From a virus: DNA of 64,000 nucleotides. Each line of letters opens with the position of its first letter. Within the stretch, counting starts at the first letter, position 1. Under the pieces are notes generated by a model that did not search any database, was not told the DNA's origin, and saw only the letters and a list, made by a program, of their open reading frames with translations. Where the stretch lies: positions 206,630-270,629 of the IMG/VR virus record IMGVR_UViG_3300017917_003822; one strand, written 5' to 3'. Shown in pieces: positions 697-56,813 of this stretch. A program made the position numbers and the translations under genes.

Positions 697-727
697 TTTT
701 TTTATCCGGGATTATTTGATAGATTTG
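697..727 (+). promoter_or_regulatory. recurring promoter-like motif copy 1
   Basis: TTTTTTTT-ATCCGGG-N9-TAGATTTG, ~22 nt upstream of ATG 750. Confidence 0.4.
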
Positions 728-749
728 TAATGTTTAAAAAAATAACAAG

Positions 750-998
750 ATGGCATCAAATCATTATGACGTGAATCACGAGGTTGAAATAAAAATTAAG
801 GTTAAAATTAAGGCCCTTCATAATTATCGTGATCTTGACGAGGAAGGAAAGAAGAAAGCTATAGATTCAGTTGTTGACGATCTACCATCCATAGTGGTGC
901 ACAGTCTGAATAATCATAATAGATTTGTCAGTTATGGAGATCATCTGGGGTACAAAGATTCTGCAGATAGCTACACATTGGAAGCTGAAGAAATATAA
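750..998 (+). CDS. hypothetical protein
   Basis: 82-aa ORF directly downstream of promoter motif 697-727. Confidence 0.35.
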   Translation: MASNHYDVNHEVEIKIKVKIKALHNYRDLDEEGKKKAIDSVVDDLPSIVVHSLNNHNRFVSYGDHLGYKDSADSYTLEAEEI

Positions 999-1011
999 AA
1001 AAAAATAAACT

Positions 1012-1470
1012 ATGTTATCGGATTTATCAAGAGGAGAAGAAAATGTATTAAAAAGCATCAGAAACTCCGAAAAGTATCAGGAAAAAAAATTCTCGGACAA
1101 CTATTTTAAGTTGTCAGGAGAAATGGGAAGGGTTGTGGAGGCTGCCAAAATATACATCCTGGACAACTTCCGAAAGGTTGATGACTATTCGGATCTTTCC
1201 ATGATGCTCAGATGTGCAAACCATAAGGGAACCATTTATATTGGTAAGAAGGAGAATAAAAAAAGAAGTAAATCCAACATCATCGATAAGATGTTGTCTG
1301 AATTGAATGAGATAACGATCGAGGTTTCGTCTTTTGATGATGCAGTTTACGATTGGAGCGACGGAGATTTTTCAATCGTTTTAAATGGGGTTGGATACAA
1401 TTGGATAGATCCACTTTCCATCATCAACATAGCGGACCACATAGAAAGCAAACTAGATGAAAACAATTAG
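1012..1470 (+). CDS. hypothetical protein
   Basis: 152-aa ORF, tight spacing with neighbours. Confidence 0.4.
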   Translation: MLSDLSRGEENVLKSIRNSEKYQEKKFSDNYFKLSGEMGRVVEAAKIYILDNFRKVDDYSDLSMMLRCANHKGTIYIGKKENKKRSKSNIIDKMLSELNEITIEVSSFDDAVYDWSDGDFSIVLNGVGYNWIDPLSIINIADHIESKLDENN

Positions 1471-1798
1471 ATTCTATCGAAAAGATACCAGATGGTATGC
1501 TCATTTACCCGAGTACATTGATCAGGGCGGAACTGAGGAGGAATGTGAGATGGTCTCTGGTGCCGACGATTGGTTGGATCGCATTTCAAATTACTCAGAT
1601 TCTGTGGTTCTGAATTTATCGGACAAGGACCCTCTATCAGAAAAAATAGTTCTCTACGAGAAGGATGAATTTGGTGCAACATATGTGGCACATAGCTATA
1701 AAGAGGAGGATATCAACCAGATCATGTGGCTTTGTCCGGTGACTGTTTATGTTTTTGGTTGCTATCCTGAAGTTATTTATTACAGTATTAAAAGATGA
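1457..1798 (+). CDS. hypothetical protein
   Basis: 113-aa ORF, ATGA overlap with the next gene. Confidence 0.35.
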   Translation: MKTIRFYRKDTRWYAHLPEYIDQGGTEEECEMVSGADDWLDRISNYSDSVVLNLSDKDPLSEKIVLYEKDEFGATYVAHSYKEEDINQIMWLCPVTVYVFGCYPEVIYYSIKR

Positions 1799-2043
1799 GA
1801 ATAAAAGCAATTTACAGAAAAAACCTGAAAATGAGCGAGGGGAAGCTCGCCGCACAGATAGCCCACGCAGTTAAGAACCTAGGAGAAACCCCGAGGGATT
1901 GCGATATAGTCGTTCTAAAGGTTTCAGATAAAAAGTTTGACGAGATGGTTTCGGAGCATGATTGTTACGTTCAGATAGACAAGGGTCTAACTGAGGTAGA
2001 ATCAGGAACTAGAACAGCGGCAGCCTGGATAGAAATAAAATAA
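1795..2043 (+). CDS. minimal PTH2-family (archaeal/eukaryotic type) peptidyl-tRNA hydrolase
   Basis: NLKMSEGKLAAQIAHAV, IVVLKV and DKGLTEVESGTRTAAAW align with PTH2 motifs (DLKMGKGKxAAQxxHA ... DAGLTQxxPGTxTVLAIGP). Only 82 aa. Confidence 0.55.
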   Translation: MRIKAIYRKNLKMSEGKLAAQIAHAVKNLGETPRDCDIVVLKVSDKKFDEMVSEHDCYVQIDKGLTEVESGTRTAAAWIEIK

Positions 2044-2055
2044 CCAACAAGAGAA

Positions 2056-2364
2056 ATGAGCATATTGTCAAAGATTTTTGGGACGAAAAAAGAGGCCGAA
2101 GGTGAAATTAAAATCGAGATACCAGAGGAGGTAATCTTCAAGAAAAAAGAAGTTTCCGAATGGGTAGAATTCAAGAAACAAAAACCTCCCCACGAAGTTG
2201 TTTTAGCTGCCTGTGATACGTATGATTGCGGATGGGTGATGGATACCGCTTGGTGGGATGTTAATAAAAAATGTTGGAGAACCACGGGAGCGATTAAATC
2301 AAAAAGAGCACATTTAGAATACACCCATTGGAGAAGACTTCCAGTTTCACCAGATGGAAATTAA
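2056..2364 (+). CDS. hypothetical protein
   Basis: 102-aa ORF. Confidence 0.35.
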   Translation: MSILSKIFGTKKEAEGEIKIEIPEEVIFKKKEVSEWVEFKKQKPPHEVVLAACDTYDCGWVMDTAWWDVNKKCWRTTGAIKSKRAHLEYTHWRRLPVSPDGN

Positions 2365-2388
2365 TAACATAATAAAGGAGACAAGATC

Positions 2389-2688
2389 ATGGATTTATCA
2401 ACTTACAAATTTCCGGAAGTAACCGGTGCAGACCTAGCATTTCCGACATTCGACACAACAAAGGAGCTAGTAGATGAAGCAAAAAGAAGGAACCCTGTGA
2501 AGGGTATGAAAAAGTTTTCCGAACTATTCTACAGCGGAGGAGAAATAAAACTAAAGGAAGACGTAAAGGGCACATGGAAAGAAAACGCCTATCTTTATGC
2601 AAGAGCACTGATGGGGAGCTGGGCACCTAAACACGAGAACAAGGAGTTGGTTGTAGGCATGATTTTCGAAGAATGTCTAGTTCTTTAG
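2389..2688 (+). CDS. hypothetical protein
   Basis: 99-aa ORF. Confidence 0.35.
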   Translation: MDLSTYKFPEVTGADLAFPTFDTTKELVDEAKRRNPVKGMKKFSELFYSGGEIKLKEDVKGTWKENAYLYARALMGSWAPKHENKELVVGMIFEECLVL

Positions 2689-2692
2689 TGGT

Positions 2693-3481
2693 ATGAGCGA
2701 GAGTAAATCTCTATTTAAGGCCTTTATCAGGGTGGTAAAATCCATCTCGGAAAGGGATAATTATTTCCTTGGTGGATTTGGTGCGGTTGAGGTTGTGAGA
2801 GAACCTCTAATAGAGGCCAAAGACAAATCTGAGGTTAAGAAGATATTACTGGAGAGATATCCCCAATTTTTTACCAACGGTAAAGTCCACGAAAGAGAAA
2901 CTAAGGATAATGCTCAATTTTTCTATGTTGTAATATACCCTCTATACGAATGGGAGAAAAAACAAATCGAAGAGGGAGAATGGATATGTGAAAGTTGTGG
3001 ACATATTCATGAAAATCAATATCTGTCAAAACCAAGAATTAACGAGAGGTTATTTGGAACAGATAAGCTCTTCTGTAGGAGTGACGAGGATCTTTGTCTG
3101 GAGAATTACAAGAAGGAATATTATAAGGATGTAGATCTTCCAGATGATCTAGCATACATCAAAAAAGATAGTCCAAATTACATCTATAAATGTACGGAGA
3201 AAGCAACAGGTAAAAGCTACATAGGTAAAACTAGAAATGCTCCATTCTTTAGATGGTGGAATCACCTAACGCACTCAAGCAGTCCCTTTGGAATTTATCT
3301 AAGACAAACCAAATTGAGTGATTGGACTTTCGAAGTTCTTGAGGAGCTGCCAGGAAATATTGATGAGAGCGAAGTTTTTAGAATAGAATCTGAGTACATA
3401 ATGAAATACGATAGCATTCAGAATGGCTATAATACGGTAATTAGTAATAAGAAGGTTCTGGCTGATAACAACGATAACTAA
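2693..3481 (+). CDS. GIY-YIG nuclease domain protein (possible free-standing homing endonuclease) with N-terminal CxxC region
   Basis: C-terminal YIYKCTEKATGKSYIGKT...R..W.H...E...NGYN is the GIY-YIG signature. CESCGH lies upstream. Confidence 0.6.
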   Translation: MSESKSLFKAFIRVVKSISERDNYFLGGFGAVEVVREPLIEAKDKSEVKKILLERYPQFFTNGKVHERETKDNAQFFYVVIYPLYEWEKKQIEEGEWICESCGHIHENQYLSKPRINERLFGTDKLFCRSDEDLCLENYKKEYYKDVDLPDDLAYIKKDSPNYIYKCTEKATGKSYIGKTRNAPFFRWWNHLTHSSSPFGIYLRQTKLSDWTFEVLEELPGNIDESEVFRIESEYIMKYDSIQNGYNTVISNKKVLADNNDN

Positions 3482-3532
3482 CTTTTTGTAGCTTGTTTCA
3501 GTTGCAAATTATTAGCTAAACATGTAAAAATT

Positions 3533-3724
3533 ATGGATAAGTGGAATTACGATAAAAGAGTTAGAGAATTATCTCAAAAAATTGAACAGTATAAAATACA
3601 CGCTAAACGTGAAATTGAAAACAATAAAGTTTGTCATCCAAGCAAAGTGAGAAATAATTCTCAACGATATTTGGAAATCTGTAAACAAAGGTATAAGGAT
3701 TTTACAGGTGAGGACTATGAATAA
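3533..3724 (+). CDS. hypothetical protein (AT-rich island)
   Basis: 63-aa ORF in the compositionally distinct 3.5-4.9 kb island. Confidence 0.3.
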   Translation: MDKWNYDKRVRELSQKIEQYKIHAKREIENNKVCHPSKVRNNSQRYLEICKQRYKDFTGEDYE

Positions 3725-3799
3725 TTTTTATTGCTTATAACGTTCCCACGCTTGGCGAAGTGGCGGATGTAAAGCACTAAATTTTTAATTAAACAAATT

Positions 3800-4018
3800 A
3801 TGAAAAAGAACAAAACTCGAAATATAGACAAACAACTTCAAAAATTGTTATATGAACAATATGGTGAAGAATACACTCAATGGTATATGAAAACTTTTGA
3901 TGTTAAATTATATTTTGATGGAGCGGAAACATCAGATAGAGGTTATTTAACAGATAGAGAGTTTGACGAATGGAAAGAAGAAAAATGGAAACAATTTTTG
4001 TCCAAGTATGGTTATTAA
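3800..4018 (+). CDS. hypothetical protein (AT-rich island)
   Basis: 72-aa ORF preceded by the TATAACGTT...CTAAATTT motif. Confidence 0.3.
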   Translation: MKKNKTRNIDKQLQKLLYEQYGEEYTQWYMKTFDVKLYFDGAETSDRGYLTDREFDEWKEEKWKQFLSKYGY

Positions 4019-4114
4019 AAATTTATTATATATAACGTTTTCCGTGTATAATAAGTGGCGTACACGATAAACCAAGCCACTAAATTTAAAAATTAACTTT
4101 AAAATACAAAACAA

Positions 4115-4399
4115 ATGAAAAATTTAAAACTTAGAAGCCATTTTTTATACACGTTGTTATGTGTAGTTTTTTTAACATCTTGTAATTGTGATAAACAAAA
4201 AAAAGAAATTATTATTGAAGAAAATAATCATCAAGAAGATTATTACATTTACAATGATACATTACAAAATAATGCAATTCAAGAAAAAAATAATAGTAGC
4301 GGTGTAGGTATCACAACAAGTAGTAAATTAGGTGTAGAAGTAACAGAAGGTGTTTATATTAATTCAAGCGGTGAGTTAGAATTAGGATTTGGTTTGTAA
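4115..4399 (+). CDS. putative lipoprotein
   Basis: N-terminus MKNLKLRSHFLYTLLCVVFLTSC: signal peptide plus lipobox Cys, Bacteroidetes style. Confidence 0.45.
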   Translation: MKNLKLRSHFLYTLLCVVFLTSCNCDKQKKEIIIEENNHQEDYYIYNDTLQNNAIQEKNNSSGVGITTSSKLGVEVTEGVYINSSGELELGFGL

Positions 4400-4474
4400 A
4401 ATTACACATAACGGTTTGCGTATTGGCGTTGTTGCCAATACTGATGTTAAATTGAAAAACTAAATTTGAAATAT

Positions 4475-4723
4475 ATGGAAAATGACAATATGAAACAAGA
4501 AGGCAATAACGCTAATACGCTGTTATCGGCAGTTGTTGTTCATCCACATCCGATAATTGAAATGCAAATAAAGAACTTTAAAAAAGATGAAGTTGGCTAC
4601 ATCGCTGAATGTATTTTATACAACAAAGAATTTAAAGAAGTAGAAAGCTCATTCTTTATTGACGAATATAGAGCCAACGAAATCATTGATTTAATGCAGA
4701 CGTTTTTGAACAATTGCCGATAA
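4475..4723 (+). CDS. hypothetical protein
   Basis: Track start 4466 is TTG. First ATG at 4475 gives MENDNMKQ... Confidence 0.3.
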
Positions 4724-4724
4724 A

Positions 4725-4907
4725 AAATATATTGATAATACTTCATCTATACACACTTTAAGACATTCATCATTTACAAATTTACTAGAATCTGGAACAG
4801 ATTTAAGGATAATTCAAAAAATTGCGGGACATTCAAGTTCCAAAACAACAGAAATCTACACCCATGTTTCGAATAATATCCTAAATAAAGTAAAACTTCC
4901 GATTTAA
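4725..4907 (+). pseudogene. remnant of tyrosine recombinase/integrase (C-terminal box II only, no start codon)
   Basis: Frame translates ...[52 protein letters not shown]. This is the HxxR...Y catalytic C-terminus of XerC/D-like integrases. No ATG in frame, and the catalytic N-terminal ~250 aa is absent. Confidence 0.6.
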
Positions 4908-4939
4908 TTTTTTTATGTCGAGATAATTAATTACTTTTG
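4908..4939 (+). promoter_or_regulatory. promoter-like motif copy 2
   Basis: TTTTTTT-ATGTCGAG-N9-TACTTTTG, upstream of 4972. Confidence 0.4.
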
Positions 4940-4971
4940 TTTTCTTAATAATCCACTATAAATCATAAAAA

Positions 4972-5541
4972 ATGGGACTAGATATCACGGTTTATAAACC
5001 AATTAAAGTAAAGGAGGAGGATTTTCAAAAGATTGAGGATTTTTTAAACATCGAAGACCACCCGGAACTTTCAGTGTTTTCTGATTTTATATTCGAGAAA
5101 GAAAACGAATACTATGATCTTGAAAACGAAGCCAGAGATCTGGGTTACAATCTTGAGGATTTAATCTGGACCGGAACATCTTTTGGACCGGAATCTGCTT
5201 ACACTTTCAAAGATAGTGATGGAAATGATGTTAAAATTATCATCACAAAAACAATCAAGAAAATTGATAAGTGTATTGCCATCGAGGAGGTTGGGTATCA
5301 GAGAAAAGGTGCGAATAAAAAATTCTATGAAGATAAGATATGGGACAGTCCATGTGTTATAGATCAGAAGACACTAAACAATCACTGGGAGACTTACTTT
5401 TCAAACCAAACCCCCGAGAGCAAAGGTGGATGGGGAAGCGGGGTTGAATATGAACAGGATGATGAGACCATGAGAAAAAACTTTAAGAAAAATATCATAG
5501 ATAAATTCATCGAGGGGGAAACTTTTGTCATATATCATTAG
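4972..5541 (+). CDS. hypothetical protein
   Basis: 189-aa ORF downstream of promoter motif 4908-4939. Confidence 0.4.
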   Translation: MGLDITVYKPIKVKEEDFQKIEDFLNIEDHPELSVFSDFIFEKENEYYDLENEARDLGYNLEDLIWTGTSFGPESAYTFKDSDGNDVKIIITKTIKKIDKCIAIEEVGYQRKGANKKFYEDKIWDSPCVIDQKTLNNHWETYFSNQTPESKGGWGSGVEYEQDDETMRKNFKKNIIDKFIEGETFVIYH

Positions 5542-5550
5542 GAGAGCTTT

Positions 5551-5775
5551 ATGAAAAATGAAACTATTATAAAAAAGGTTTTTAAGGAATTTGGTGAGAA
5601 CTTTAATGACTTAACAGGTAGTCAATTATTAGCTATTGATGAGTGTATGTTATTAGCAAGACAAGACAAAGCCAATAGAGTAATTAAAGAAATTGAAAAT
5701 CGCACTAATAAAGTGGGTTGTTTTTGGGCTGATGAGGAAAGAACGAAAAAAATAATCCATGGATACGGGAATTAA
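5551..5775 (+). CDS. hypothetical protein
   Basis: 74-aa ORF. Confidence 0.35.
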   Translation: MKNETIIKKVFKEFGENFNDLTGSQLLAIDECMLLARQDKANRVIKEIENRTNKVGCFWADEERTKKIIHGYGN

Positions 5776-5783
5776 GTAATATT

Positions 5784-6053
5784 ATGAGAGTTGGAGATTT
5801 ATATGAAATGGGATTCTTTCATAGAGATGGCAATTATGCAACATCCAAATGGATAGTTAAAGATGATGGATGGGGTGAAAATAGTTCAGCAACCATACAA
5901 TATAGACCAGGAAATGGGATCGTTTTGAATAGCGGAGACGATGTAGATTTTAGCAGATTTTCCCTCTGTATTTATGGTAATTCATCATGTCCCAGTATAC
6001 CAGTAAAAATAAGATCCAAGGAGGACCTGATTCAGCTGGAGAGATTCTTCTAA
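5784..6053 (+). CDS. hypothetical protein
   Basis: 89-aa ORF. Confidence 0.35.
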   Translation: MRVGDLYEMGFFHRDGNYATSKWIVKDDGWGENSSATIQYRPGNGIVLNSGDDVDFSRFSLCIYGNSSCPSIPVKIRSKEDLIQLERFF

Positions 6054-6065
6054 AAAAAATATGCT

Positions 6066-6530
6066 ATGGAAAGAAAAACATCAAAAGAATGGTATGATTT
6101 AATACCGGATGAATATGGATTAAAAATACTAGATCCAGATGGATGGGATAGAGAAAATTTCCAGATTTCTTTTTATGAGGAACTGATAACAAGGGAGGAG
6201 TTCAAAAATAGAATATCACTTTCCACGATTCAATGTAAAAAAATTAATTTCCTCGATGATGTCACATATAAGGGGAGTTCTCTAAATGGGCACACCATAG
6301 AAGACATTAAGGCAGAAATTTCAAAGTCCACAGGTTACGATCCTTCAAATATTAGATTATTTGGTTCAAGAATAACGGGTGGTTGGAACGATCATTCGGA
6401 TCTTGATGTCGCTATAATGGACGAAAATAAAGTTCATTTGTGTTTATCCAGTGTAAACTATCTTGGATTAAACTGTGAGATCCGATTTGTTGAAGATTTT
6501 GAGGTCTCCTGGTTAAAGGATTCAGTTTAA
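6066..6530 (+). CDS. minimal nucleotidyltransferase (Pol-beta superfamily) domain protein
   Basis: LFGSRITGGWNDHSDLDVAI matches the hG[GS]x(9-13)DhD nucleotidyltransferase motif. Confidence 0.5.
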   Translation: MERKTSKEWYDLIPDEYGLKILDPDGWDRENFQISFYEELITREEFKNRISLSTIQCKKINFLDDVTYKGSSLNGHTIEDIKAEISKSTGYDPSNIRLFGSRITGGWNDHSDLDVAIMDENKVHLCLSSVNYLGLNCEIRFVEDFEVSWLKDSV

Positions 6531-6552: not shown

Positions 6553-6585
6553 ATTTTTTTATCCCGAAATAATTTACTATGTTTG
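6553..6585 (+). promoter_or_regulatory. promoter-like motif copy 3
   Basis: TTTTTTT-ATCCCGA-N10-TATGTTTG, upstream of rnlA. Confidence 0.4.
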
Positions 6586-6603: not shown

Positions 6604-7683
6604 ATGAAATACGACATAAACATATTAAATAGCTATATTGATAATGGGCTGCTGGAAAAAAACCCACATCCAACATTACCTCTCGATATCTACAACTACT
6701 CCCGGGAGTGCCAATTTTCACGTCATTGGGATGAGATAACCCTCAACATGAGGGGCACAGTCTTAGACAGAGATGGAAATGTAGTAGCAAGAACATTTTC
6801 AAAATTCTTCAATCTGGAAGAACATCAACCCGAAGAAATTCCAAATGAATCATTTGACGTTTTTGAAAAAATGGATGGTTCACTGGGTATTTTATTTAAT
6901 TACAACGATCAGTGGATATTTGCAACTAAGGGATCATTCTCGTCAGATCAATCAATCAGAGGTAAGGAAATTTTGGAGAAGTACGACTATCAAAGTCTAG
7001 CGAAAGATTGCACATATTTATTCGAGATCATATATCCAGAAAATAGAATTGTCGTCAGCTACGATTTCGAAGATCTAGTACTATTAGCAATCATCAATAA
7101 CGAGGATGGCTATGAATATGACATACACTCGGAGGAGGCGCTTTCTGATGTACTGGATATCAAGGGTTTTAGAATTGTTAAAAAATACCATGGAGTTCAG
7201 GACTATAAGGAGCTTAAGAAAATCATAGATAACAATGCAGAGGGATTCGTCATCAGATTCAAATCTGGTTTCAGAATGAAGATCAAAGGGGAAGAGTATG
7301 TTAGACTCCATCGGCTTCTAACAAACTTCTCGAACATTGACATCTGGGAACTTTTGAAGAATGGGGAGGATCTTGGTAATTTTCTGGACAGAGTTCCTGA
7401 TGAATTTGATCTCTGGGTCAAGAATATTATCTCAGATCTAAGAAGACAGTACCTGGTAATCGAGGAATCAGCACATGAGGTCCATTCATCATTCTTTGTT
7501 GCGAGACCAGATTTTTCGAGAGAAGCGGGAAAGAAAGAATATGCTCTGTGGGTTAAAGAACAAGAAAAGAATTTGCAAGGTATATTATTTTGTCTGTATG
7601 ACGAGAAAAGGTATTCGGATCACATTTGGAAAATGATAAGACCGAAATACCAAAAACCATTTTGGAACAAAATTGAGGATTGA
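6604..7683 (+). CDS. rnlA: ATP-dependent RNA ligase, T4 RnlA (Rnl1) family
   Basis: MRGTVLDRDGNVVARTFSKFFNLEE and FEKMDGSLGILF...ATKGSFSSDQ align with T4 Rnl1 (ECRGIMFEMDGE...EKFFNLNE; TKEDGSL...SKGSIKSEQ). Motif I is KxDGS, motif IV is EGFVIR. Confidence 0.8.
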   Translation: MKYDINILNSYIDNGLLEKNPHPTLPLDIYNYSRECQFSRHWDEITLNMRGTVLDRDGNVVARTFSKFFNLEEHQPEEIPNESFDVFEKMDGSLGILFNYNDQWIFATKGSFSSDQSIRGKEILEKYDYQSLAKDCTYLFEIIYPENRIVVSYDFEDLVLLAIINNEDGYEYDIHSEEALSDVLDIKGFRIVKKYHGVQDYKELKKIIDNNAEGFVIRFKSGFRMKIKGEEYVRLHRLLTNFSNIDIWELLKNGEDLGNFLDRVPDEFDLWVKNIISDLRRQYLVIEESAHEVHSSFFVARPDFSREAGKKEYALWVKEQEKNLQGILFCLYDEKRYSDHIWKMIRPKYQKPFWNKIED

Positions 7684-8470: not shown

Positions 8471-8644
8471 ATGATAACACAAGAAATTTTAAACACTTTT
8501 GTCTTCGATACAATCGGGGGAGAAAAATTTGGGGTCAATGATCCAATAGCTCATGATGAGATTATTGGATACTATCCATCGAGAGAGGAAGCAGAAAAAG
8601 CTTTCATTGAGTACGTAGAAAAAGAAGGTATAATATTCGAATAA
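8471..8644 (+). CDS. small hypothetical protein (57 aa, below ORF-track cutoff)
   Basis: ATG at 8471. Stop overlaps the next start (TAATG). MITQEILNTFVFDTIGGEKFG... Confidence 0.25.
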   Translation: MITQEILNTFVFDTIGGEKFGVNDPIAHDEIIGYYPSREEAEKAFIEYVEKEGIIFE

Positions 8645-9090
8645 TGGAAAATTCAAGAACTGGATACAGTATAATTAAACCAACCATGTTTCTCATAAGA
8701 GGAATCCCAGGATCTGGTAAATCGACATTTGCAAATCACATCTGGAACGAGTATGCAATCTGCGAAGCAGACAAATACTTCATAGACAAGGAAACTGGTG
8801 AATATAAATTTGATGCCTCTAAGCTGAAGGATGCGCATGAATGGTGCAGAAATGAAGTTGAGAACAGAATGAAAGAACATCATCTTAATCCACAGTACTA
8901 TCCTGAAATAGCAGTGTCCAATACATTCACCCAAGAATGGGAAATGCAAAATTATCTGGATCTTGCTGATAAGTATGGTTATCAGGTTGTTTCTTTGATA
9001 GTGGAGAACCGACACGGAGGATCGAACGTTCACAACGTTCCGGAAGAAACCTTGGATAGAATGAGACAAAGATTTGAAATTAAACTATAA
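8644..9090 (+). CDS. P-loop polynucleotide 5'-kinase-like protein (T4 Pnk kinase-domain-like)
   Basis: Walker A GIPGSGKST. Overall pattern resembles the T4 Pnk kinase domain (ISDTNL...; ...DRMRQRF). Confidence 0.6.
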   Translation: MENSRTGYSIIKPTMFLIRGIPGSGKSTFANHIWNEYAICEADKYFIDKETGEYKFDASKLKDAHEWCRNEVENRMKEHHLNPQYYPEIAVSNTFTQEWEMQNYLDLADKYGYQVVSLIVENRHGGSNVHNVPEETLDRMRQRFEIKL

Positions 9091-45442: not shown

Positions 45443-45466
45443 GAGTCTAACAAAAACATATTTTCA

Positions 45467-47913: not shown

Positions 47914-47916
47914 TCT

Positions 47917-48591
47917 ATGAAAAATTTACATATATTACCGACATCCAAACCAAGTAGATTATATGAATTTGGTGGTGCATATTATATTCAAGACAAGCCA
48001 CAAGAAAATTTTAGAAGTTATAATATCTACATCACTGGGGAGGAAAAAATTAGGATAGGGGATTGGGTAATTGATGATGATTATGACGAACCAGTATTAT
48101 ATAAAGCAGACAAATATTTTTTTGATATTGGTAAGGAAGCTAGAAAAATCATATTAACAACCGACACAGAATTAATTGACGGAGGGGTACAGAACATCCA
48201 AGATGTATTTTTAAGTTGGCTGATCCAGAATCCAACTTGTGAGAAGGTCGAGGTTAGAAAAAATCCAAAAGTGAGTGGAATAGTAAAAGGTTTGGGTATT
48301 AAAAGTTTCGACAACGGTTATAAAATAATAATACCCAAGAATAAGAATAAAGAAGAGAAAGTTAACGAACCTCAAAACTTAAAAAACTTTAAAAAATTAG
48401 ACAGTGCAGCCATGGACGATTCCATAAAGAAAAAAGAAGCAATTGACGGGATTATTGGGGGATTATTTAAGAAATATTCAAACAATACTTCACTAGCTGA
48501 GGGTGATTATGAACACCTAATGGATAGCGAAGATTTTAGAGAAGCTTCTATTGAATTGATTGAATGGTTAGAAAAATTTAAAAAGGAATAG
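47917..48591 (+). CDS. paralog family A member 3 (more diverged)
   Basis: MKNLHILPTSKPSRL...NIYITGEEKIRIGDW...ILTTDTELIDGGVQNIQDVFLSWLIQNPTC. Confidence 0.45.
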   Translation: MKNLHILPTSKPSRLYEFGGAYYIQDKPQENFRSYNIYITGEEKIRIGDWVIDDDYDEPVLYKADKYFFDIGKEARKIILTTDTELIDGGVQNIQDVFLSWLIQNPTCEKVEVRKNPKVSGIVKGLGIKSFDNGYKIIIPKNKNKEEKVNEPQNLKNFKKLDSAAMDDSIKKKEAIDGIIGGLFKKYSNNTSLAEGDYEHLMDSEDFREASIELIEWLEKFKKE

Positions 48592-49234: not shown

Positions 49235-49253
49235 TCACTACAATTCATTAAAA

Positions 49254-49287
49254 TATTTTTTTGAACCGGGATTCTGTTCTATATTAG
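49254..49287 (+). promoter_or_regulatory. promoter-like motif copy 12
   Basis: TTTTTTT-GAACCGGG-N9-TATATTAG. Confidence 0.35.
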
Positions 49288-49310
49288 CACTATCATTAAA
49301 AAAAAAGCAC

Positions 49311-49484
49311 ATGGCAAAACCTAGAGTTATTCTACAAGAAAAATACAAAAAAGGTGTGGTTGTAGATAAAAATGAAATAAAGAGGATGGTTGATGAAAAC
49401 ATCGAAAAAATAGTTGTTGAAATCAGAGAGACTCTTAAATACAGCGACGGAACTGAGGGTATAGTTATCGAAATCAGATTCTAA
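49311..49484 (+). CDS. small hypothetical protein
   Basis: The track ORF 49185-49484 contains a promoter motif at 49254-49287. In-frame ATG at 49311 (MAKPRVIL) is preferred. Confidence 0.25.
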   Translation: MAKPRVILQEKYKKGVVVDKNEIKRMVDENIEKIVVEIRETLKYSDGTEGIVIEIRF

Positions 49485-49495: not shown

Positions 49496-49864
49496 ATGGA
49501 AAAAGAATTTATACCTTATGAACAGGCATTAGCTTTAAAAGAATTAGGATTTGATGAACCATGTTTTTGGTTATATGATGGAAAAATACTTAAAACTCAA
49601 ATTATACCAAGTAGTAATTCTGATTTTAAATATATTGATATAGTTCAAGCACCACTTAAACAACAAGCATTTAGATGGTTTAGAGAAAAGTATAAATTAT
49701 GTGGTTTAATTGAGATTGGAACACAAGAGTTTTCTTATCAAGTTTTTAATAATAAAGGGAATAGACAACTTGGAACTGAACCTATAAGCTATAATGGAAC
49801 CTACGAAGAAGCAGAACTTGAATGTTTAAAGAAACTAATTGAAATTGTTAAAGATAAGAAATAA
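49496..49864 (+). CDS. paralog family B member 1
   Basis: MEKEFIPYEQALALKELGFDEPCF...FRWFREKYKL...GTYEEAELECLKKLIEIVKDKK. Confidence 0.4.
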   Translation: MEKEFIPYEQALALKELGFDEPCFWLYDGKILKTQIIPSSNSDFKYIDIVQAPLKQQAFRWFREKYKLCGLIEIGTQEFSYQVFNNKGNRQLGTEPISYNGTYEEAELECLKKLIEIVKDKK

Positions 49865-50271
49865 TGGAAAAAGAATTTGTGCCTTATGAACAAGCACTAA
49901 CTTTAAAAGAACTTGGTTTTGATGAACCTTGTTTAGGTTACTACTTAACTAATTTGTTAACAAACGAAGTAAAACTATTTATTGATAATAGAACAGGACT
50001 TTCATCATTTGAAAAAACTACACCTGCTCCAACATTCTCTCAAGTATTTAGATGGTTTAGAGAGAAGTATAACTTGAGAGGATTTATTGGATTTAGACCA
50101 AATGTAAAAAAATTTGATTGTCATGTTTATGATATGTCTCTGTCTGGCAAAGAATATGTTGAACAAAGAACTATGGAAGAGTTTAACAAAGACCCTAAAG
50201 TTGGAACCTACGAAGAAGCAGAACTTGAATGTTTAAAGAAACTAATTGAAATTGTTAAAGATAAGAAATAA
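49864..50271 (+). CDS. paralog family B member 2
   Basis: C-terminal ~80 nt (including stop and next start) is identical to member 1 (49797-49875 vs 50204-50282). Confidence 0.4.
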   Translation: MEKEFVPYEQALTLKELGFDEPCLGYYLTNLLTNEVKLFIDNRTGLSSFEKTTPAPTFSQVFRWFREKYNLRGFIGFRPNVKKFDCHVYDMSLSGKEYVEQRTMEEFNKDPKVGTYEEAELECLKKLIEIVKDKK

Positions 50272-50777
50272 TGGAAAAAGAATTTATTCCTTACGAACAA
50301 GCATTAGTTTTAAAAGAATTAGGATTTGATGAACCTTGTTTTAAATATGTTTATATTGGAGATACTGGAAATAACTTTGATCATTATCTTGAAGTAGAAC
50401 CATCAAAGGCAAAAAATTATAATGAGGATGATTTATGTATATCACAGCCAACTTACTCAGCAGCATTTAGATGGTTTAGAGAGAAGTATAATATTCATCA
50501 TTCAATGAGACCCGTGGTTGGATCTAAAAATGGATACGACTCATATCCAATTTTGGGGTGGGAATCAGATATTTTTGCTACAAATCAAGGAACTCAAAAT
50601 TCATATTACATGGGATATCCGGTCTGTGAGTGGTTCACAGCAACACTAGATAATTTTGACGAGGGTGACACATTGAAGGATTTGAATTTAGATCCACTTA
50701 AATATGAAGAGGCAGAGCTTAAATGTTTAAAAAATATTATAAAATACGTCAAAAAAGAAAAGCTGAATGGAAGATAA
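50271..50777 (+). CDS. paralog family B member 3 (diverged C-terminus)
   Basis: Same N-terminus MEKEFIPYEQALVLKELGFDEPCF and the FRWFREKYN motif. Confidence 0.4.
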   Translation: MEKEFIPYEQALVLKELGFDEPCFKYVYIGDTGNNFDHYLEVEPSKAKNYNEDDLCISQPTYSAAFRWFREKYNIHHSMRPVVGSKNGYDSYPILGWESDIFATNQGTQNSYYMGYPVCEWFTATLDNFDEGDTLKDLNLDPLKYEEAELKCLKNIIKYVKKEKLNGR

Positions 50778-50883: not shown

Positions 50884-50894
50884 TAAAATGAAGG

Positions 50895-50982
50895 AGTCAG
50901 GTGACTGGTGTCTGCACAGTAAGCTGTGTGTTGGTTCGATCCCAACGAGGTGTAAATTCAGGTTCGAATCCTGTCCTGACTA
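50895..50982 (+). tRNA. tRNA-like gene U1 (non-canonical: two T-loop-like hairpins)
   Basis: 7-bp acceptor AGTCAGG/CCTGACT, D-like hairpin ACTG-GTGTCTGCA-CAGT, internal GTTGG-TTCGATC-CCAAC, T arm CAGG-TTCGAAT-CCTG, discriminator A. No encoded CCA. 88 nt. Confidence 0.4.
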
Positions 50983-51335
50983 CTAAGGTTAAACATTGAA
51001 TACCTTTGTAAATGTTAGAAGTGAGGAAGAGTACCTCAATAAAAAATAAGTTCAATTAAGAACAAATAATTTACATAAAGATACTATCAGTAATGGTAGA
51101 TGTGTTGTTCCCTTGAGAAAGGAATGGGCAAAGGTGGCTAATTAAAGTTAACAACAACTCCACACAACACAAATGAGTTCTCAGCAAGTAGTTCGAAAAG
51201 CTATGCAGTTTTAAAACTCTTATGGAGCCTTACAAACTAGAACTACGTGACCCTACTCCACTTGGGCGATTCACAGATGAGTTGTTAAGACAGGTTTGAA
51301 TCCTGTATTGTCCTACCGAAAGAGGGTGCTAAAAA

Positions 51336-51457
51336 AGTCAGGTGGCAGAATGGTAAACGCATGCTCCATCGGTGATACATCTCCTCGATGGACATGGTAT
51401 TTATTAAGTTCGCTTAATAATGTAAAACTGGTGCAGGTTCGAATCCTGCCCTGACTT
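51336..51457 (+). ncRNA. tRNA-like gene U2 with ~45-nt extra structure (122 nt)
   Basis: Same acceptor AGTCAGG/CCTGACT and T arm GCAGG-TTCGAAT-CCTGC. Leu-like D region GCAG-AATGGTAAA-CGC. Internal 11-bp hairpin with 14-nt loop, plus a 7-bp hairpin with a UUCG tetraloop. Confidence 0.4.
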
Positions 51458-51474
51458 CTATTAACTACAAAGAA

Positions 51475-51696
51475 ATGAAAAATCCAAAAATCAAAACGAA
51501 GGTTGTGCATTCAGAATCAAAACCTGCATGGAATATAATAGGAACAACATTGGGAGGAAAGTACAAAATAGCAAGAGTCCCTTATTTAGTGGAAACTGGA
51601 AATGATATTATAGACGCCAGGGAAAAAGCTGAAGCACTTGAACATGCAAATTTCATATCCTTCTGTTTTAACAATTCAGATTCAATCTGCAAGTAA
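51475..51696 (+). CDS. hypothetical protein
   Basis: 73-aa ORF between tRNA-like genes. Confidence 0.35.
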   Translation: MKNPKIKTKVVHSESKPAWNIIGTTLGGKYKIARVPYLVETGNDIIDAREKAEALEHANFISFCFNNSDSICK

Positions 51697-51716
51697 CTAA
51701 AAAAATCTCAAGAATT

Positions 51717-51749
51717 ATTTTTTTATTCCGATCTGATATCTTACATTAG
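51717..51749 (+). promoter_or_regulatory. promoter-like motif copy 13
   Basis: TTTTTTT-ATTCCGAT-N9-TACATTAG. Inside the tRNA-like array. Confidence 0.35.
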
Positions 51750-51781
51750 CAAAGTAAAAATAAACAAAAAGTTAAATCTAG

Positions 51782-51913
51782 ATGTTGGTAGAAATTTGTA
51801 ATTATTGCAACAAGTTGCTGGGAATATTAATCTTTAACGGTAAACCCTGCTGTCAATTTTGTGAGGAGGAACAGAAAAAGAAATCAAAAAATACCAAAGA
51901 AAATGAAAAGTAG
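51782..51913 (+). CDS. mini zinc-ribbon protein (43 aa, not in track)
   Basis: MLVEICNYCNKLLGILIFNGKPCCQFCEEEQKKKSKNTKENEK has two CxxC pairs. Follows promoter motif 51717-51749. Confidence 0.25.
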   Translation: MLVEICNYCNKLLGILIFNGKPCCQFCEEEQKKKSKNTKENEK

Positions 51914-52151
51914 AGGATGCAACGATTGCAAGAACTACAAATCAGAATTCGATTTCTGGGGAGAGAAACCAACACAAAGAATATGTTTATCTGGTAATGA
52001 TCTCGAGGTAAATGCATGGTGGAGGGATAATGGCAGAAAAAATATCAATGATGAGGTGGATTCAATGGATTGTTTCGAGGAGACAGAGTCTTCGAAAATG
52101 CTGAATAAAATGTCATCTTTATTGGATAAGATGAACGAAGTTCTAAAATAA
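51903..52151 (+). CDS. hypothetical protein with CxxC motif
   Basis: ATG at 51903 gives MKSRGCNDCKNYK. The track start 51861 overlaps the mini-ORF. Confidence 0.35.
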   Translation: MKSRGCNDCKNYKSEFDFWGEKPTQRICLSGNDLEVNAWWRDNGRKNINDEVDSMDCFEETESSKMLNKMSSLLDKMNEVLK

Positions 52152-52155
52152 AAAA

Positions 52156-52325
52156 GGTCGGGTGGCGGAATTTAATCGATTGCTGAAATTGGCCAATCTA
52201 CGAATCGATTATCGGTAGACGTTATGAGAAAACCCAAATACTGAGGGCGTCCATCTAGGGAGTGATAAAGGCAATACTAGTTTACCAATCAGGCTCCCGT
52301 CCAGGTTCGAATCCTGTACCGACTA
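52156..52325 (+). ncRNA. tRNA-like gene U3 with ~95-nt palindrome-rich insertion (170 nt)
   Basis: Acceptor GGTCGGG/ACCGACT (one mismatch) and T arm CCAGG-TTCGAAT-CCTGT. Leu-like GCGGAAT D region. Insert contains paired palindromes AATCGATT x2 and ATTGGCCAAT. Confidence 0.35.
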
Positions 52326-52486
52326 CAATGAGTTGATTACTCAGATGGATTCATCTATCCTGAAAGATGCCGACATACTCTTGGGCGTAAGGCAAGAGCG
52401 GGTTTTGAAATTCAGTAGCGCCGTTACGGAAACTGAGCTCGGAGGGCAATAAACTTCGTGAGGTCTAATCAACCGTAATTGCAAAT

Positions 52487-52564
52487 AGTCAGGTGGCGGA
52501 ATTGGTAGCGCATTTCTCTATACCAACGAGAATCGGAGTGCAGGTTCGAATCCTGTCCTGACTA
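52487..52564 (+). tRNA. tRNA-like gene U4 (canonical length, 78 nt; anticodon arm irregular so isotype unassigned)
   Basis: AGTCAGG-TG-GCGGAATTGGTAGCGC (Leu-like D arm) ... GCAGG-TTCGAAT-CCTGT-CCTGACT-A. Best anticodon stem TCTC/GAGA leaves an ATACCAA loop. Confidence 0.45.
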
Positions 52565-52579
52565 CTAAAAATTGGAAGT

Positions 52580-53194
52580 ATGATAGTAAATAAAATTGAA
52601 TTTCCTAAGTTCACTGGAGTAAAATGTAATATGATGCCATTCATCCAGGGGGACAGTTCATCATTACCAGATGAATATAAATCCTACTCAAAAATAGTCG
52701 AGGAGAATTATATTGAGAAGGGAGAGGTTGGCTATCTAACTATTGACGAATCCTTTGTTAGTTCGGGTGAATCCCAAAGAGGGTACAATTCCAAAGGGAT
52801 TAACAGAAACGTTCATATAGAAGTTGGACGATGTGGTGATAAAAACAGATGGGGAGGAAGTGGAGGAGGATCGTCTTGGGGAGGTAGAAATCAAACTTTT
52901 CTTTCCGACGACACAATGGTTCTAATTGCCAATAACATTTCTGACACTTGCAGGGTGTGGGACACAAAGGAGTTATCATACACAGATGACGGGGATTTGA
53001 GTGAGTACATAGACAAATATCCTGAGAATACCGGGATTATGTTAAAATCGGGTGAGGTTGCAAAGATAAGTATTTTTACTCCGCATGAATGCGTTACACA
53101 AAAAGAATCAGGTCTTAGACAATTCTTCAGGATTGTCGGTAAAGGTGTCACTGGGAGAGAAGAATATTTTACAATTAATCCATTGTTGAATTAG
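52580..53194 (+). CDS. hypothetical protein (Gly-rich centre)
   Basis: 204-aa ORF between tRNA-like genes. Confidence 0.4.
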   Translation: MIVNKIEFPKFTGVKCNMMPFIQGDSSSLPDEYKSYSKIVEENYIEKGEVGYLTIDESFVSSGESQRGYNSKGINRNVHIEVGRCGDKNRWGGSGGGSSWGGRNQTFLSDDTMVLIANNISDTCRVWDTKELSYTDDGDLSEYIDKYPENTGIMLKSGEVAKISIFTPHECVTQKESGLRQFFRIVGKGVTGREEYFTINPLLN

Positions 53195-53321
53195 TTACAA
53201 AAGCCCTAAGGCCAAGGGATCGTAGAACAGAAGCTGCCTCTTAACAATGCACACTGACTTCTCTGAATCGTAAGTCAGCACAGTTTCGGATGTTCTGGTG
53301 GTATTATAAAAACATCTAAAA

Positions 53322-53431
53322 GGTCAGGTGGCGGAATTGGCTATCGCACTCCACTTAAATATGGAGAGTATTGTTTCAACACAGTTAATCAGGTGAAAGG
53401 CACCATACAGGTTCGAGTCCTGTCCTGACCA
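53322..53431 (+). ncRNA. tRNA-like gene U5 with ~35-nt insertion in the variable region (110 nt)
   Basis: Perfect acceptor GGTCAGG/CCTGACC and T arm ACAGG-TTCGAGT-CCTGT. D arm GCGG-AATTGGCTAT-CGC. Anticodon-like hairpin CTCCA-CTTAAATA-TGGAG has an 8-nt loop containing UAA. Confidence 0.4.
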
Positions 53432-54953: not shown

Positions 54954-54955
54954 TT

Positions 54956-55189: not shown

Positions 55190-55403
55190 CAAGATGCGTC
55201 ATATGGTTGAGTTAACCAAGATCGACGTTCTTGGTGATAGAAAAATAGCAATCAACACCCAGCTAATAGAGGCATTTTGGGAAAGACAAGGAGGAGAGGG
55301 GACAATCATTAGATTGGCGGCCAGCTCATATGAGTATCACATTAAAGAAAACTACGACGAGGTTAAAAAAGCAGTTAAAACAGCTAAAGATTTCGTCTTT
55401 TAA
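55170..55403 (+). CDS. hypothetical protein
   Basis: 77-aa ORF. Confidence 0.3.
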   Translation: MTSITTNKMRHMVELTKIDVLGDRKIAINTQLIEAFWERQGGEGTIIRLAASSYEYHIKENYDEVKKAVKTAKDFVF

Positions 55404-55415
55404 ATTGAATAAGAG

Positions 55416-55673
55416 ATGAAAAGAGAAAATTGGTTAGATTATGGAGATTTTTTAGATCTTGGATCGAATGTAGCTCAAAATTCTAATCTATTGGCAAATC
55501 TATGGGGTGAAGATGGGACAATAACTTCACAGAAACTCAGCGCAGAGAGGGAAATCGAGGAACTTCATAAGCTGTTCGATGAATTGGCTCCGGATACCTC
55601 AGGAATGAAAAGTATTGCCGATAAGCTTAGATCGATATTAACTGAGCCTAGATTTGAATCAGTTAGAAAATAG
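55416..55673 (+). CDS. hypothetical protein
   Basis: 85-aa ORF. Confidence 0.3.
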   Translation: MKRENWLDYGDFLDLGSNVAQNSNLLANLWGEDGTITSQKLSAEREIEELHKLFDELAPDTSGMKSIADKLRSILTEPRFESVRK

Positions 55674-55685
55674 AACTAATTAAAA

Positions 55686-55718
55686 AAAGGAATCTGTGAT
55701 AGATTCCTTTTTTTTGTT
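55686..55718. terminator. bidirectional hairpin terminator
   Basis: AAAGGAATCT-GTGAT-AGATTCCTTT flanked by an A-run and a T-run. Sits between convergent genes. Confidence 0.5.
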
Positions 55719-56387
55719 TTATACTGAGTATTTCTTAGCGAGATTTGCAAGACCCTGAAATAATCCCTTCCAGTTTGGATCGAGTTTAATCAACTGATCC
55801 ATCGTAAAGTATGATGCGTTCTCCATCTGAAAATCCTCACCATTTCTTTTATAGACAGCAACAAATCCATTATATGCTCCTGGAGCAACTTTGAGATCCT
55901 GCTTTTTAACTTTATCAAAGGGAGAATGCCATTCAAAATTTAAAGCTTTCTGATCATACCCAACTGCAACATCAATAAAAACTGTTGGATAATATCGGTC
56001 ATCATATTTAGACTCCTGGGTTCTCGTAGCATACATCCAAACTCCAGCACCTTTTCTAGGTCCTGATGCTGACCAAGAAGCATCAGCCCATTTTTCAATC
56101 TTGAAAGTTGCAGGTTTTATTTGTCCCCATTCCGGTATTTTGAAATCCTTTCCACCATAAGCAGCAACTAAATTTTTGGTGTCCTGATAATATGCCTTGG
56201 ATTTATTCTTATCGGTGTAATACGGATCCTCATTAACTTTAGCCTGATCACCGCTTGCAAGCATATTCTCAACCTGAGATTTATAATCCGCAATGTCTGA
56301 AGTTTTTCCTTTTAATTCAGGAGCCTCCATTGCTTCCATTGATGCTGACTCGTTTAAAAAGTCATCAAATCTTAATAATTTATTCAT
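55719..56387 (-). CDS. hypothetical protein with MNKLLRFDDFLNES N-terminal motif
   Basis: 222-aa minus ORF. Confidence 0.4.
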   Translation of the reverse strand: MNKLLRFDDFLNESASMEAMEAPELKGKTSDIADYKSQVENMLASGDQAKVNEDPYYTDKNKSKAYYQDTKNLVAAYGGKDFKIPEWGQIKPATFKIEKWADASWSASGPRKGAGVWMYATRTQESKYDDRYYPTVFIDVAVGYDQKALNFEWHSPFDKVKKQDLKVAPGAYNGFVAVYKRNGEDFQMENASYFTMDQLIKLDPNWKGLFQGLANLAKKYSV

Positions 56388-56391
56388 TTTA

Positions 56392-56748
56392 TTATTTATT
56401 TTGTCTAATTAATAATTCCCCTAAGACCTCGATTTTACCAACAATCTCCTGGAAATCAACCTGTGATATGTTCATATCATTTTTTGTTGATGAGTAAAGA
56501 ACATCAAGAAGATCTTTATACTCCTTCTCTGCCTCTGCTCTGTCAAATTTCCCCTCCTTTGCTTTCTTATAAGTCGATAGTTTAACCTTAAAGTGGTGAT
56601 ATGTTAACATCGCATCGCCGCCTTTTTCTTTAGCTGAGTCAGCTATTTTGGTAGCTCCTGCCAATCTAGTAGCAGAAAATTCTTCGAACGTCTCCTTAGT
56701 TTTGGATTCGTTTAAAAATTGGTTGTATTTTTTAATTTGTTCGCTCAT
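56392..56748 (-). CDS. hypothetical protein with ...KKYNQFLNESK N-terminal motif
   Basis: Track start is TTG. ATG five codons in gives MSEQIKKYNQFLNESK. Confidence 0.4.
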   Translation of the reverse strand: MSEQIKKYNQFLNESKTKETFEEFSATRLAGATKIADSAKEKGGDAMLTYHHFKVKLSTYKKAKEGKFDRAEAEKEYKDLLDVLYSSTKNDMNISQVDFQEIVGKIEVLGELLIRQNK

Positions 56749-56781
56749 ACATCTATATATCAATAAAAAAAACCAGTTTTA

Positions 56782-56813
56782 TTTTTTTATTCCGAGATAA
56801 TATCTTATATTTG
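56782..56813 (+). promoter_or_regulatory. promoter-like motif copy 14
   Basis: TTTTTTT-ATTCCGAG-N9-TATATTTG. Divergent intergenic region. Confidence 0.4.

Follow-up and report, generated by a model that had tools for sequence, protein, structure and literature searches.

A recurring T-run/CG/TAnnTTTG element upstream of rightward genes in an uncultivated large phage, probably a pre-late sigma-A-type promoter

Bacteroidota promoters carry a -7 element (T-12 A-11 T-8 T-7 T-6 G-5), from which transcription starts 4-5 nucleotides (nt) downstream, and a -33 element that is weak or not detectable in Flavobacterium johnsoniae (PMC6847099). Host leader lengths peak at 23 nt (mode) in Bacteroides thetaiotaomicron, and in Flavobacterium psychrophilum their median is 24 nt. 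Among large phages, T4 middle promoters (MotA box at -30, AsiA/MotA) keep a host-type downstream element and replace the upstream hexamer with a phage-typical element near -30; SPO1 (gp28, gp33/34) and T4 (gp55 with TATAAATA) use sigma cascades; and T4-like phages have composite terminator/promoter motifs, called PeSL, in hyperplastic regions (PMC4122927). Here we describe an element that recurs along 64,000 nt (the window) of IMG/VR virus record IMGVR_UViG_3300017917_003822 and resembles each of these systems in part.

Every TANNTTTG in the window was listed with its context, and alignment of these sites gave the recurring parts, which are T5-8, 3-6 variable bases (usually A-T-n-C), an invariant CG, exactly 11 nt and TAnnTTTG, 32 bases in all. 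A search for TTTTT-N2-7-CG-N11-TAnnTTTG finds 12 distinct + strand sites and no - strand site; the same pattern occurs ~0.03 times in whole-window dinucleotide shuffles (overlapping matches counted) and 0.004 times on average in 1000 shuffles of the intergenic DNA alone. Twelve of the 18 intergenic + strand boxes have CG at a single offset, and it is seldom seen at any other. Scoring by weight matrix brings in three more copies, each with a one-base variant of the box (23396 TATATTTA, 49267 TATATTAG and 51729 TACATTAG) and a weak one (31416 TAATCTTG), and the position-weight-matrix scan of the window gives no - strand match. The recurrence reported in a first-pass annotation is thereby borne out, with 15 good copies and 1 weak copy, all on the + strand, instead of the 14 reported. 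They are listed below.

696-727 (+): copy 1, T8-ATC-CG-N11-TAGATTTG; ATG at 750; weight-matrix score 37.2
4908-4939 (+): copy 2, T7-ATGT-CG-N11-TACTTTTG; ATG at 4972
6554-6585 (+): copy 3, T7-ATCC-CG-N11-TATGTTTG; ATG at 6604, T4-type RNA ligase 1 (Rnl1)
14175-14206 (+): copy 4, T7-AATT-CG-N11-TATATTTG; divergent region; ATG at 14222; listed TTG start 14204 within the box
21721-21779 (+): copy 5 with an upstream terminator-like hairpin; CG at 21759, box at 21772-21779, ATG at 21798
23385-23416 (+): copy 6, variant box, T6-AATCC-CG-N11-TATATTTA; ATG at 23436; score 30.8
27534-27565 (+): copy 7, T7-ATGC-CG-N11-TATCTTTG; ATG at 27583
31384-31436 (+): weak 16th copy, fused to a strong terminator hairpin; CG at 31416, N11, TAATCTTG; ATG at 31453; score 12.7
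34469-34500 (+): copy 8, T6-ATTAC-CG-N11-TACATTTG; ATG at 34528; listed TTG start 34498 within the box
39345-39376 (+): copy 9, T6-ATTAC-CG-N11-TACATTTG; divergent region; ATG at 39412
42171-42203 (+): copy 10, T8-ATTC-CG-N11-TACATTTG; divergent region; probable true ATG at 42215
43834-43868 (+): copy 11, T8-A-T5-CG-N11-TATGTTTG; next long open reading frame (ORF) at 43937, 68 nt away
45466-45507 (+): copy 12, fused to a terminator; box at 45500-45507, ATG at 45534
49256-49287 (+): copy 13, T7-GAAC-CG-N11-TATATTAG; outside the strict list; score 25.0; ATG at 49311, a 57-amino-acid (aa) ORF
51718-51749 (+): copy 14, variant box, T7-ATTC-CG-N11-TACATTAG; ATG at 51782; the unit leads into a tRNA-like array
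56782-56813 (+): copy 15, the best match, T7-ATTC-CG-N11-TATATTTG; score 42.8; ATG at 56839, a Myb-like putative transcriptional regulator

All 16 copies are intergenic, upstream of and co-oriented with a gene; coding DNA, checked for an equal frequency of the motif, holds none, every copy falling in the intergenic 9% of the window. The box lies 11-35 nt before the ATG, with a single exception of 68 nt, which is a wider range than the 20-30 nt first proposed. Only the T-run (5 T), the CG and the box are invariant, the box being exact in 12 of the 16 copies and carrying one mismatch in the other four (TATATTTA, TATATTAG, TACATTAG and TAATCTTG). 'ATTCCGAG' is a loose consensus: the literal form proposed earlier, TTCCGAK-N8-11-TANNTTTG, matches only twice (42180 and 56790), and the element is real as its invariant core. 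The spacer, given earlier as 9-10 nt, is a rigid 9 nt after the 8-mer (11 nt between CG and TA), and 10 is not seen.

With positions numbered as set for F. johnsoniae promoters (PMC6847099), the T-run lies at -36 to -30, the CG at -25/-24, usually with C at -26, and the box at -12 to -5. The T-run starts 11 nt before the C of CG, that is at -36, in 13 of 16 sites. Bases before the T-run are A/T-rich, and TTT is favoured at -17 to -15 in the window copies. Divergent intergenic regions do hold copies, though five of them (14186, 39356, 42183, 43848 and 56793) instead of the three reported. No dyad symmetry around the CG, as in an operator for a dimer, is present in the copies by eye, and the CG contexts (CCGA, CCGG, TCGA, ACGG and CCGT) have no restriction or methylation site in common. 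The element is real, conserved and far from random.

Gene starts are affected by it. As suspected, TTG/GTG starts inside the boxes are artefacts, since the TTG at 14204, 21777 and 34498 is the TTG of the box. The listed ATG start at 42185 falls within the CCGATG element. In-frame ATGs lie downstream of the mis-called starts at 14222, 21798, 34528 and 42215. A - strand ORF at 49238-49402 that overlaps the 49267 copy is spurious.

We consider the copies, with a probability of roughly 0.65, to be the standard pre-late (early and/or middle) sigma-A-type promoters of an uncultivated jumbo phage clade infecting Bacteroidota. Each copy would be a sigma-A(Bfr)-type promoter with TAnnTTTG as its -7 box at -12 to -5, and transcription would begin 4-5 nt after the box, leaving leaders of ~10-30 nt. 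The T-tract at -36 to -30, with an A-rich stretch before it, would stand in place of the canonical -33 TTTG, and the invariant CpG, usually CCG, would be set at -25/-24, a constant 11 bp away from the box. RNA polymerase with a sigma-A-type factor would bind and transcribe rightward units of ~1-10 small non-structural genes, among them genes for RNA repair, nucleotide metabolism and host takeover and, in related phages, the sigma gene that they themselves encode. At promoters where the preceding unit ends, its terminator hairpin would be merged with the T-run or the CCG element. Promoter identity, reading by the host holoenzyme, early or middle action and roles of the T-tract and CpG in affinity, bending or contact with a second factor are what we infer from the comparisons that follow.

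The earlier description of a promoter-like element with a Bacteroidota -7 box upstream of + strand genes stands, as the box matches the published element. Like Bacteroidota sigma-ABfr promoters, the copies have the identical -7 box, an AT-rich upstream stretch, a T-run that starts where TTTG starts and a matching implied leader, the ~10-30 nt being in line with the host values. Unlike those promoters, they never have the -33 G: no copy has G at -33/-32, where the T-tract of -36 to -30 lies instead, and TTTG-N17-21-TAnnTTTG has no intergenic + strand match in the window. The 7-T tract and the invariant CpG at -25/-24 are additions. A at -9 is found in 75-85% of phage sites versus 29% of bacterial examples, and A at -37 in 85% versus 43%. 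In uniformity, the phage copies are far above host promoters. The upstream half had been described as unlike the host -33 element. This does not hold, since the T-run begins at -36, where distant relatives have TTTG, and lacks only the G.

Rnl1 has 80 relatives in IMG/VR, on contigs as long as 349 kb. The seven closest (61-73% Rnl1 identity) have the element, always co-oriented with genes, and it is present in related phage contigs of 340-435 kb, also upstream of orthologous genes. Before the Rnl1 orthologue of three related loci (L004, L005 and L006), the conserved parts (T-run, CCCG, 11-nt spacing and box) persist, and the bases separating them vary. In L007-L009, where Rnl1 directly follows another gene, the element is absent there. 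In an IMG/VR scan with the strict pattern TTTTTTTATNCCG-N11-TANNTTTG, matches cluster on a small number of contigs, 208-435 kb long, and 3300027770_000025 alone has at least 8. The related IMG/VR loci, 946 kb together, contain 148 unique sites, of which 53 lie outside the strict fetch pattern; these still have T at -36 to -30 in 94-100% and A at -37 in 85%. The clade sites are A-rich at -54 to -40 and have A at -9 in 75-85%. Of the 148 sites, 103 have an ORF behind them, the median distance being 24 nt.

More distant relatives (L011-L083) and megaphages lack the CG and have canonical TTTG at -36 to -33/-32. Because the distant relatives hold TTTG at the same place, the T-run occupies the -33 position. 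The window ClpP is closest to those of metagenomic huge phages and Prevotella Lak megaphages, the best matches being LR745206.1 (64%) and LR756502.1 (46%). As a footprint, these two megaphages were rejected as too distant, having canonical TTTG and no CG-N11-box sites in 40 kb each. GenBank phages, searched at the nucleotide level, yielded short RNA-ligase and epimerase matches but no relatives. Separately, a 12.7-kb locus of an unrelated-looking contig (L386, IMGVR_UViG_3300028025_007001) has ~20 copies of GTAGG-T7-CCTACG-N11-TAnnTT(T/A)(G/A) before small genes. Their geometry is the same, the T-run is the loop of a 5-bp hairpin, and the sigma encoded there is host-like.

The upstream half is not confined to phages. 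When one genome per bacterial species was scanned with the strict composite, at least 120 matches were found, mostly singletons, many of them in Bacteroidota. Among the matches listed, the composite (T7-AT-n-CCG-N11-TAnnTTTG) lies 16-68 nt upstream of housekeeping genes on long bacterial Bacteroidota contigs (L135, L165, L191, L145, L147, L084, L172, L127, L184, L120 and L199). The genes behind it are as follows.

ribosomal protein genes: rpmE/L31 (two species) and rpsP/S16
metabolic and peptidase genes: ahcY adenosylhomocysteinase (two species), aroQ type II dehydroquinase (two species), pepT peptidase T (two species), pdxA and a purF-like gene
gyrase gene: gyrA

Since the composite precedes bacterial housekeeping genes, a cellular polymerase can presumably use it unaided by any phage protein. 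The proposal that the upstream half is phage-specific and marks the site of a phage sigma or activator is thus weakened; such a factor is possible, not required.

Such a factor nevertheless has its own case. The copies may be phage-factor-dependent 'middle'-type promoters, with the -7 box read by sigma-A-type region 2 and the T-tract/CCG half (-37 to -24) bound by a phage protein, either a phage sigma-A paralogue with a changed region 4.2 or a MotA/AsiA-like activator. We regard this as rather unlikely, although several observations favor it: no copy has the -33 G, which gives way to an invariant CpG at a rigid 11-bp spacing, and the element, hardly varying across the phage clade, is rare in hosts. 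A putative transcriptional regulator, moreover, is encoded immediately after the best copy. This protein (56839-57258, +) has a Myb/SANT-like helix-turn-helix (Myb_DNA-bind_6, Pfam E = 0.0075, below cut-off) and matches PHROG 323 (phrog_323) 'transcriptional regulator' (E = 5e-15), and is a candidate DNA-binding factor that could serve as the reader in the window.

A further candidate reader is found in relatives, which encode a ~300-aa sigma-70-family protein that looks like the primary sigma of Bacteroidota. The sigma genes are at these places.

L282, 4801-5703 (+): sigma gene, in a metagenomic family annotated 'primary sigma factor'
L209, 1243-2139 (-): sigma gene
L318, L321 and L324, at 10001: sigma genes

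The phage sigma has no close homologue among GenBank phages. Its regions 2.4 and 4.2 are both changed, region 2.4 reading FAVWHIRK(E/Q) versus YAVWWIRQS in host-like sequences (P0063 and P0069), and the region 4.2 helix reading TGDCVRIKY, SGENVRCKY, SSEMVRVRY or SGERVRQIY versus host-like [ST]RERVRQI. The late-type motif described below has no -35-like block, so a sigma with region 4 has no other obvious bipartite target. But the sigma gene is itself preceded by a T-run/CG promoter in 5 of 5 variants examined (46-95% identical), its divergent neighbour being preceded by GATATATA(A/G). With the sigma produced from this promoter, the reader has to be available beforehand, the host holoenzyme being the simplest candidate. 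Nor does sigma type predict the motif, because phages with the same sigma signature (L331, L333, L334, L343, L345, L346 and L376) have no T-run/CG sites in 12.9 kb, while L386 with its host-like sigma has ~20 copies of the same geometry. When region 4.2 was compared with the upstream element for covariation, one and the same motif accompanied such dissimilar helices as TGDCVRIKY and SGERVRQIY. No MotA, AsiA, gp55 or sigma was found by Pfam and PHROG scans of the window, and the presence of the composite before bacterial housekeeping genes also argues against a phage factor.

In geometry the element is similar to T4 middle promoters, with a host-type downstream part and a phage-typical one near -30; unlike them, it comes with no MotA/AsiA homologue in the window, is also found at bacterial genes and drives a sigma gene. 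As in the sigma cascades, a phage sigma is produced from the first promoter class, and a separate motif consisting of a -10-like block only, GATATATA(A/G), stands before virion genes; unlike the small gp55-type factors, this phage sigma has full length and looks like the primary sigma of the host. As a side observation, a 147-aa protein (20079-20522, +) matches the PHROGs 'Srd anti-sigma factor' (E = 3e-22) and 'decoy of host sigma70' as well as HNH endonuclease and endonuclease VII, and is ambiguous.

Several points weigh against standard sigma-A-type promoters. Because the -33 G is absent in every copy and an invariant CpG lies in the normally non-contacted spacer, recognition cannot be fully canonical. 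CG at -25/-24 is found in 11 of 167 (6.6%) other bacterial gene-proximal boxes, with no T-run preference, and the upstream half occurs 0 times in the examined part of the F. psychrophilum transcription-start table. The bacterial matches could be chance combinations among millions of bacterial promoters, the chance expectation being rough and ranging from ~10 to >1000 by assumptions. The sigma-A-like factor of the relatives, with altered residues at predicted DNA contacts, could be the true reader. Finally, start site and timing are deduced from sequence, and a Bacteroidota host is proposed from the -7 box, the A-rich leaders and the relatives. We also entertain, as an unlikely and speculative idea, that the T-tract and the -25/-24 CpG form a dedicated recognition element of the phage sigma-A paralogue, or that the CpG is an undescribed Bacteroidota spacer element. 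If the former is true, the phage could disable or outcompete host sigma-A, its own copy, of host-type architecture but with the FAVWHIRK signature and the rewritten region 4.2, reading the same -7 geometry, in a 'sigma substitution' strategy; if the latter, a CpG element would be exploited by the phage clade and by some housekeeping genes.

As for timing, the promoter-like copies are separate from a second motif, (G/T)ATATATA(A/G), which precedes almost all - strand genes and some + strand genes, 14 of its 17 window occurrences being intergenic.

+ strand, second-motif starts: 12816, 18929, 20515, 38236, 43293, 57317
on the - strand, second-motif starts: 14154, 20062, 38220, 42171, 56760, 59776, 61175, 63773

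The clade consensus, G-ATATATA-R, is the GATATATA(A/G) class, with 194 gene-proximal sites. None of an upstream -35-like block is seen in the 194 sites, and A follows three bases after the motif in 80% of them; this conserved A is probably the transcription start. The ATG is either at the conserved A (3-nt gap), which would give a leaderless mRNA, or 16-21 nt further on.

Behind GATATATA(A/G) are two SLT proteins and many proteins with capsid-targeting-like N-termini, a 610-aa Laminin_G_3 (lectin-domain) protein and, in relatives, a probable tail sheath of 1122 aa (Phage_sheath_1C, E = 3e-5, below the Pfam cut-off). Behind the T-run/CG class, by contrast, are Rnl1, an ATP-dependent DNA ligase, a ClpB-like ATPase and two sigma-70-family proteins (window and relatives taken together). 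Because virion-type genes have a separate motif, the T-run/CG class is non-virion and pre-late, not late, and the suggestion that its upstream half might be a late specificity determinant fails on the same ground. Its bipartite build and its place before non-structural genes also make it unlike a T4-type late promoter (-10-only, TATAAATA), which the GATATATA(A/G) motif fits.

The capsid-targeting-like set is itself of note. Many otherwise unrelated proteins have a common N-terminus, MKxIxxYExF(L/I)NE, which includes an (L/I)xE motif, the form cleaved by the T4 prohead protease. N-termini such as MKHIELYENFLNE, MKKISSFEEFINE and MENIKKYEDF... resemble the capsid-targeting sequence of T4 internal proteins, MKTYQEFIAE (PMC8442874; PMC9026906). 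They are found in these genes, which suggests a large set of head-packaged, injected proteins.

+ strand genes: 12827, 18940, 20526, 38247, 57328, 57795
on the - strand, genes: 41557-42141, 55719-56387, 56392-56748, 58931-59749, 60475-60828, 60848-61153, 62235-62741, 62743-63021, 63045-63290, 63293-63757

Terminators adjoin a few promoter-like copies. At 45466-45493, a GCCCGGAAU-U6-AUUCCGGGC hairpin (dG -18.7 kcal/mol, z -5.3) is followed by U5; 45466-45476 pairs with 45483-45493, so that the T-run forms the loop and ATTCCGGGC the 3' arm. At 31384-31429, a hairpin of -22.7 kcal/mol (z -8.75) also has the T-run as its loop, with ATTCACCG in the 3' arm. At 21721-21779, 21721-21730 pairs with 21739-21748 in a 10-bp stem (dG -12.8 kcal/mol, z -2.0), and the T-run (21748-21754) is its U-tract; the hairpin is upstream of the T-run, and the promoter CG element (AACGG) is separate from the hairpin arm. 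The earlier claim of a terminator 3' arm being the CCG element thus applies at 45466-45507 (ATTCCGGGC) and not at 21721-21779. The second class has a terminator-promoter unit as well: a strong terminator hairpin, GCCUGAUGAGUCAUCAGGC then U7, at 57283-57310 directly precedes the GATATATAA motif (fold of 57260-57330: dG -19.5 kcal/mol, z -4.3).

These three overlaps (21721, 31384 and 45466) with real hairpins and U-runs are what could be said for the copies being no promoters at all. In that case the T-run would belong to intrinsic terminators, as U-tract or loop, and what remains would be AT-rich intergenic noise or a translation signal. We find this hardly credible. Nine other copies were folded, and none has a hairpin beyond shuffles (z +0.4 to +1.2, or -0.6); with significant hairpins at only 3 copies, a general role of the T-run as a terminator U-tract was ruled out. 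Invariant CG and box lie downstream of the T-run at fixed spacing, four copies are in divergent regions where no + strand gene ends (14186, 39356, 42183 and 56793), and the box-ATG distance varies over 11-35 nt, unlike a ribosome-binding signal.

The fusions bear also on the plasticity of the region, for which synteny was compared in 21-kb samples of the seven closest relatives, a correlative comparison. A backbone is shared with these relatives. The block at 1795-6530, consisting of 12 small genes, among them a GIY-YIG-like gene (2693-3481), and two copies, and ending at the Rnl1 promoter, is absent from 7 of 7, the flanks being syntenic. In two units (750-998 and 14222-15076), the promoter is retained, and the gene that comes first after it is found in some relatives and not in others. 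Copies thus adjoin indels between close relatives in plastic regions.

In these respects the copies resemble T4 early promoters and PeSL, which are information-rich host-sigma-type promoters repeated before small accessory genes in plastic regions, with an AT-rich upstream stretch, some fused to a preceding terminator stem-loop, and with cassette indels between relatives. They differ in that the host system here has no -35/-10 hexamer pair or Shine-Dalgarno and that a stem-loop is found in only 3 of 16 copies.

Serving as a cassette boundary might even be the main evolutionary role of the element, additional to promoter function, with its short homologies allowing cassettes to be inserted, deleted or swapped. 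This seems quite improbable. The small ORFan-like genes around the copies, the three fusions to hairpins, the 1795-6530 block that ends at the Rnl1 copy, the variable first genes behind kept promoters and the description of PeSLs as such composites in T4-like hyperplastic regions (PMC4122927) are in its favor, but a stem-loop is the exception among the copies, each copy offers only ~15 scattered identical bases for recombination with the sequence between the blocks not conserved, and the synteny evidence is correlative.

The source of the window is a Logan assembly of SRR5831666. Nearly all its genes are small and on the + strand until ~58.9 kb. The functions that Pfam and PHROG scans assign are accessory ones: a Dda-like helicase fragment, Pth2, T4-type RNA ligase 1, an Rnl2-like ligase, a PNK-like ATPase, a cREC domain, ClpP, two SLT proteins, an epimerase, Thg1, a CCA-type nucleotidyltransferase, NT5C, an SPFH protein, an M28 peptidase and a cyclophilin. 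Rnl1, the PNK-like ATPase, cREC, the Rnl2-like ligase, Thg1, the CCA-type nucleotidyltransferase and Pth2 make a dense RNA/tRNA repair or maturation set (6604-7683, 8644-9090, 10239-10649, 16418-17560, 26365-27138, 31453-32196 and 1795-2043), which suggests counter-defence against host tRNA/RNA nucleases.

Other features of the window are listed here.

50890-53431: array of ~five tRNA-like genes with type-II-like ends (GTCAGGTGGCGGAAT...GGTTCGAATCCTGTCCTGAC) and large internal insertions; ARAGORN finds one (52487-52565, 'Tyr', anticodon ATA), Rfam two (52487-52564 and 53322-53431)
46520-48591 and 49496-50777: two tandem triplets of paralogous genes, with no assigned function; one triplet starts M(E/K)N(K/I/L)(N/H)..LPT and has a common ILTTDQDLI.DGVQAID, the other starts MEKEF(I/V)PYEQAL.LKELGFDEPC

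As pre-late sigma-A-type promoters, the copies are of an already known kind, being information-rich large-phage promoters with PeSL-like features, and only the missing -33 G and the invariant spacer CpG are unusual. For a clade of uncultivated phages of 340-435 kb, which has no close relative in the GenBank phage records searched, they provide a promoter model open to testing. The motif corrects gene starts, and the two motifs together split the genome into pre-late and virion-type regulatory classes from sequence. The copies are candidate strong promoters for Bacteroidota genetics, and the spacer CpG and missing -33 G raise the question of what a Bacteroidota-type holoenzyme, or the sigma copy made by a phage, recognizes in the DNA before the -7 box.

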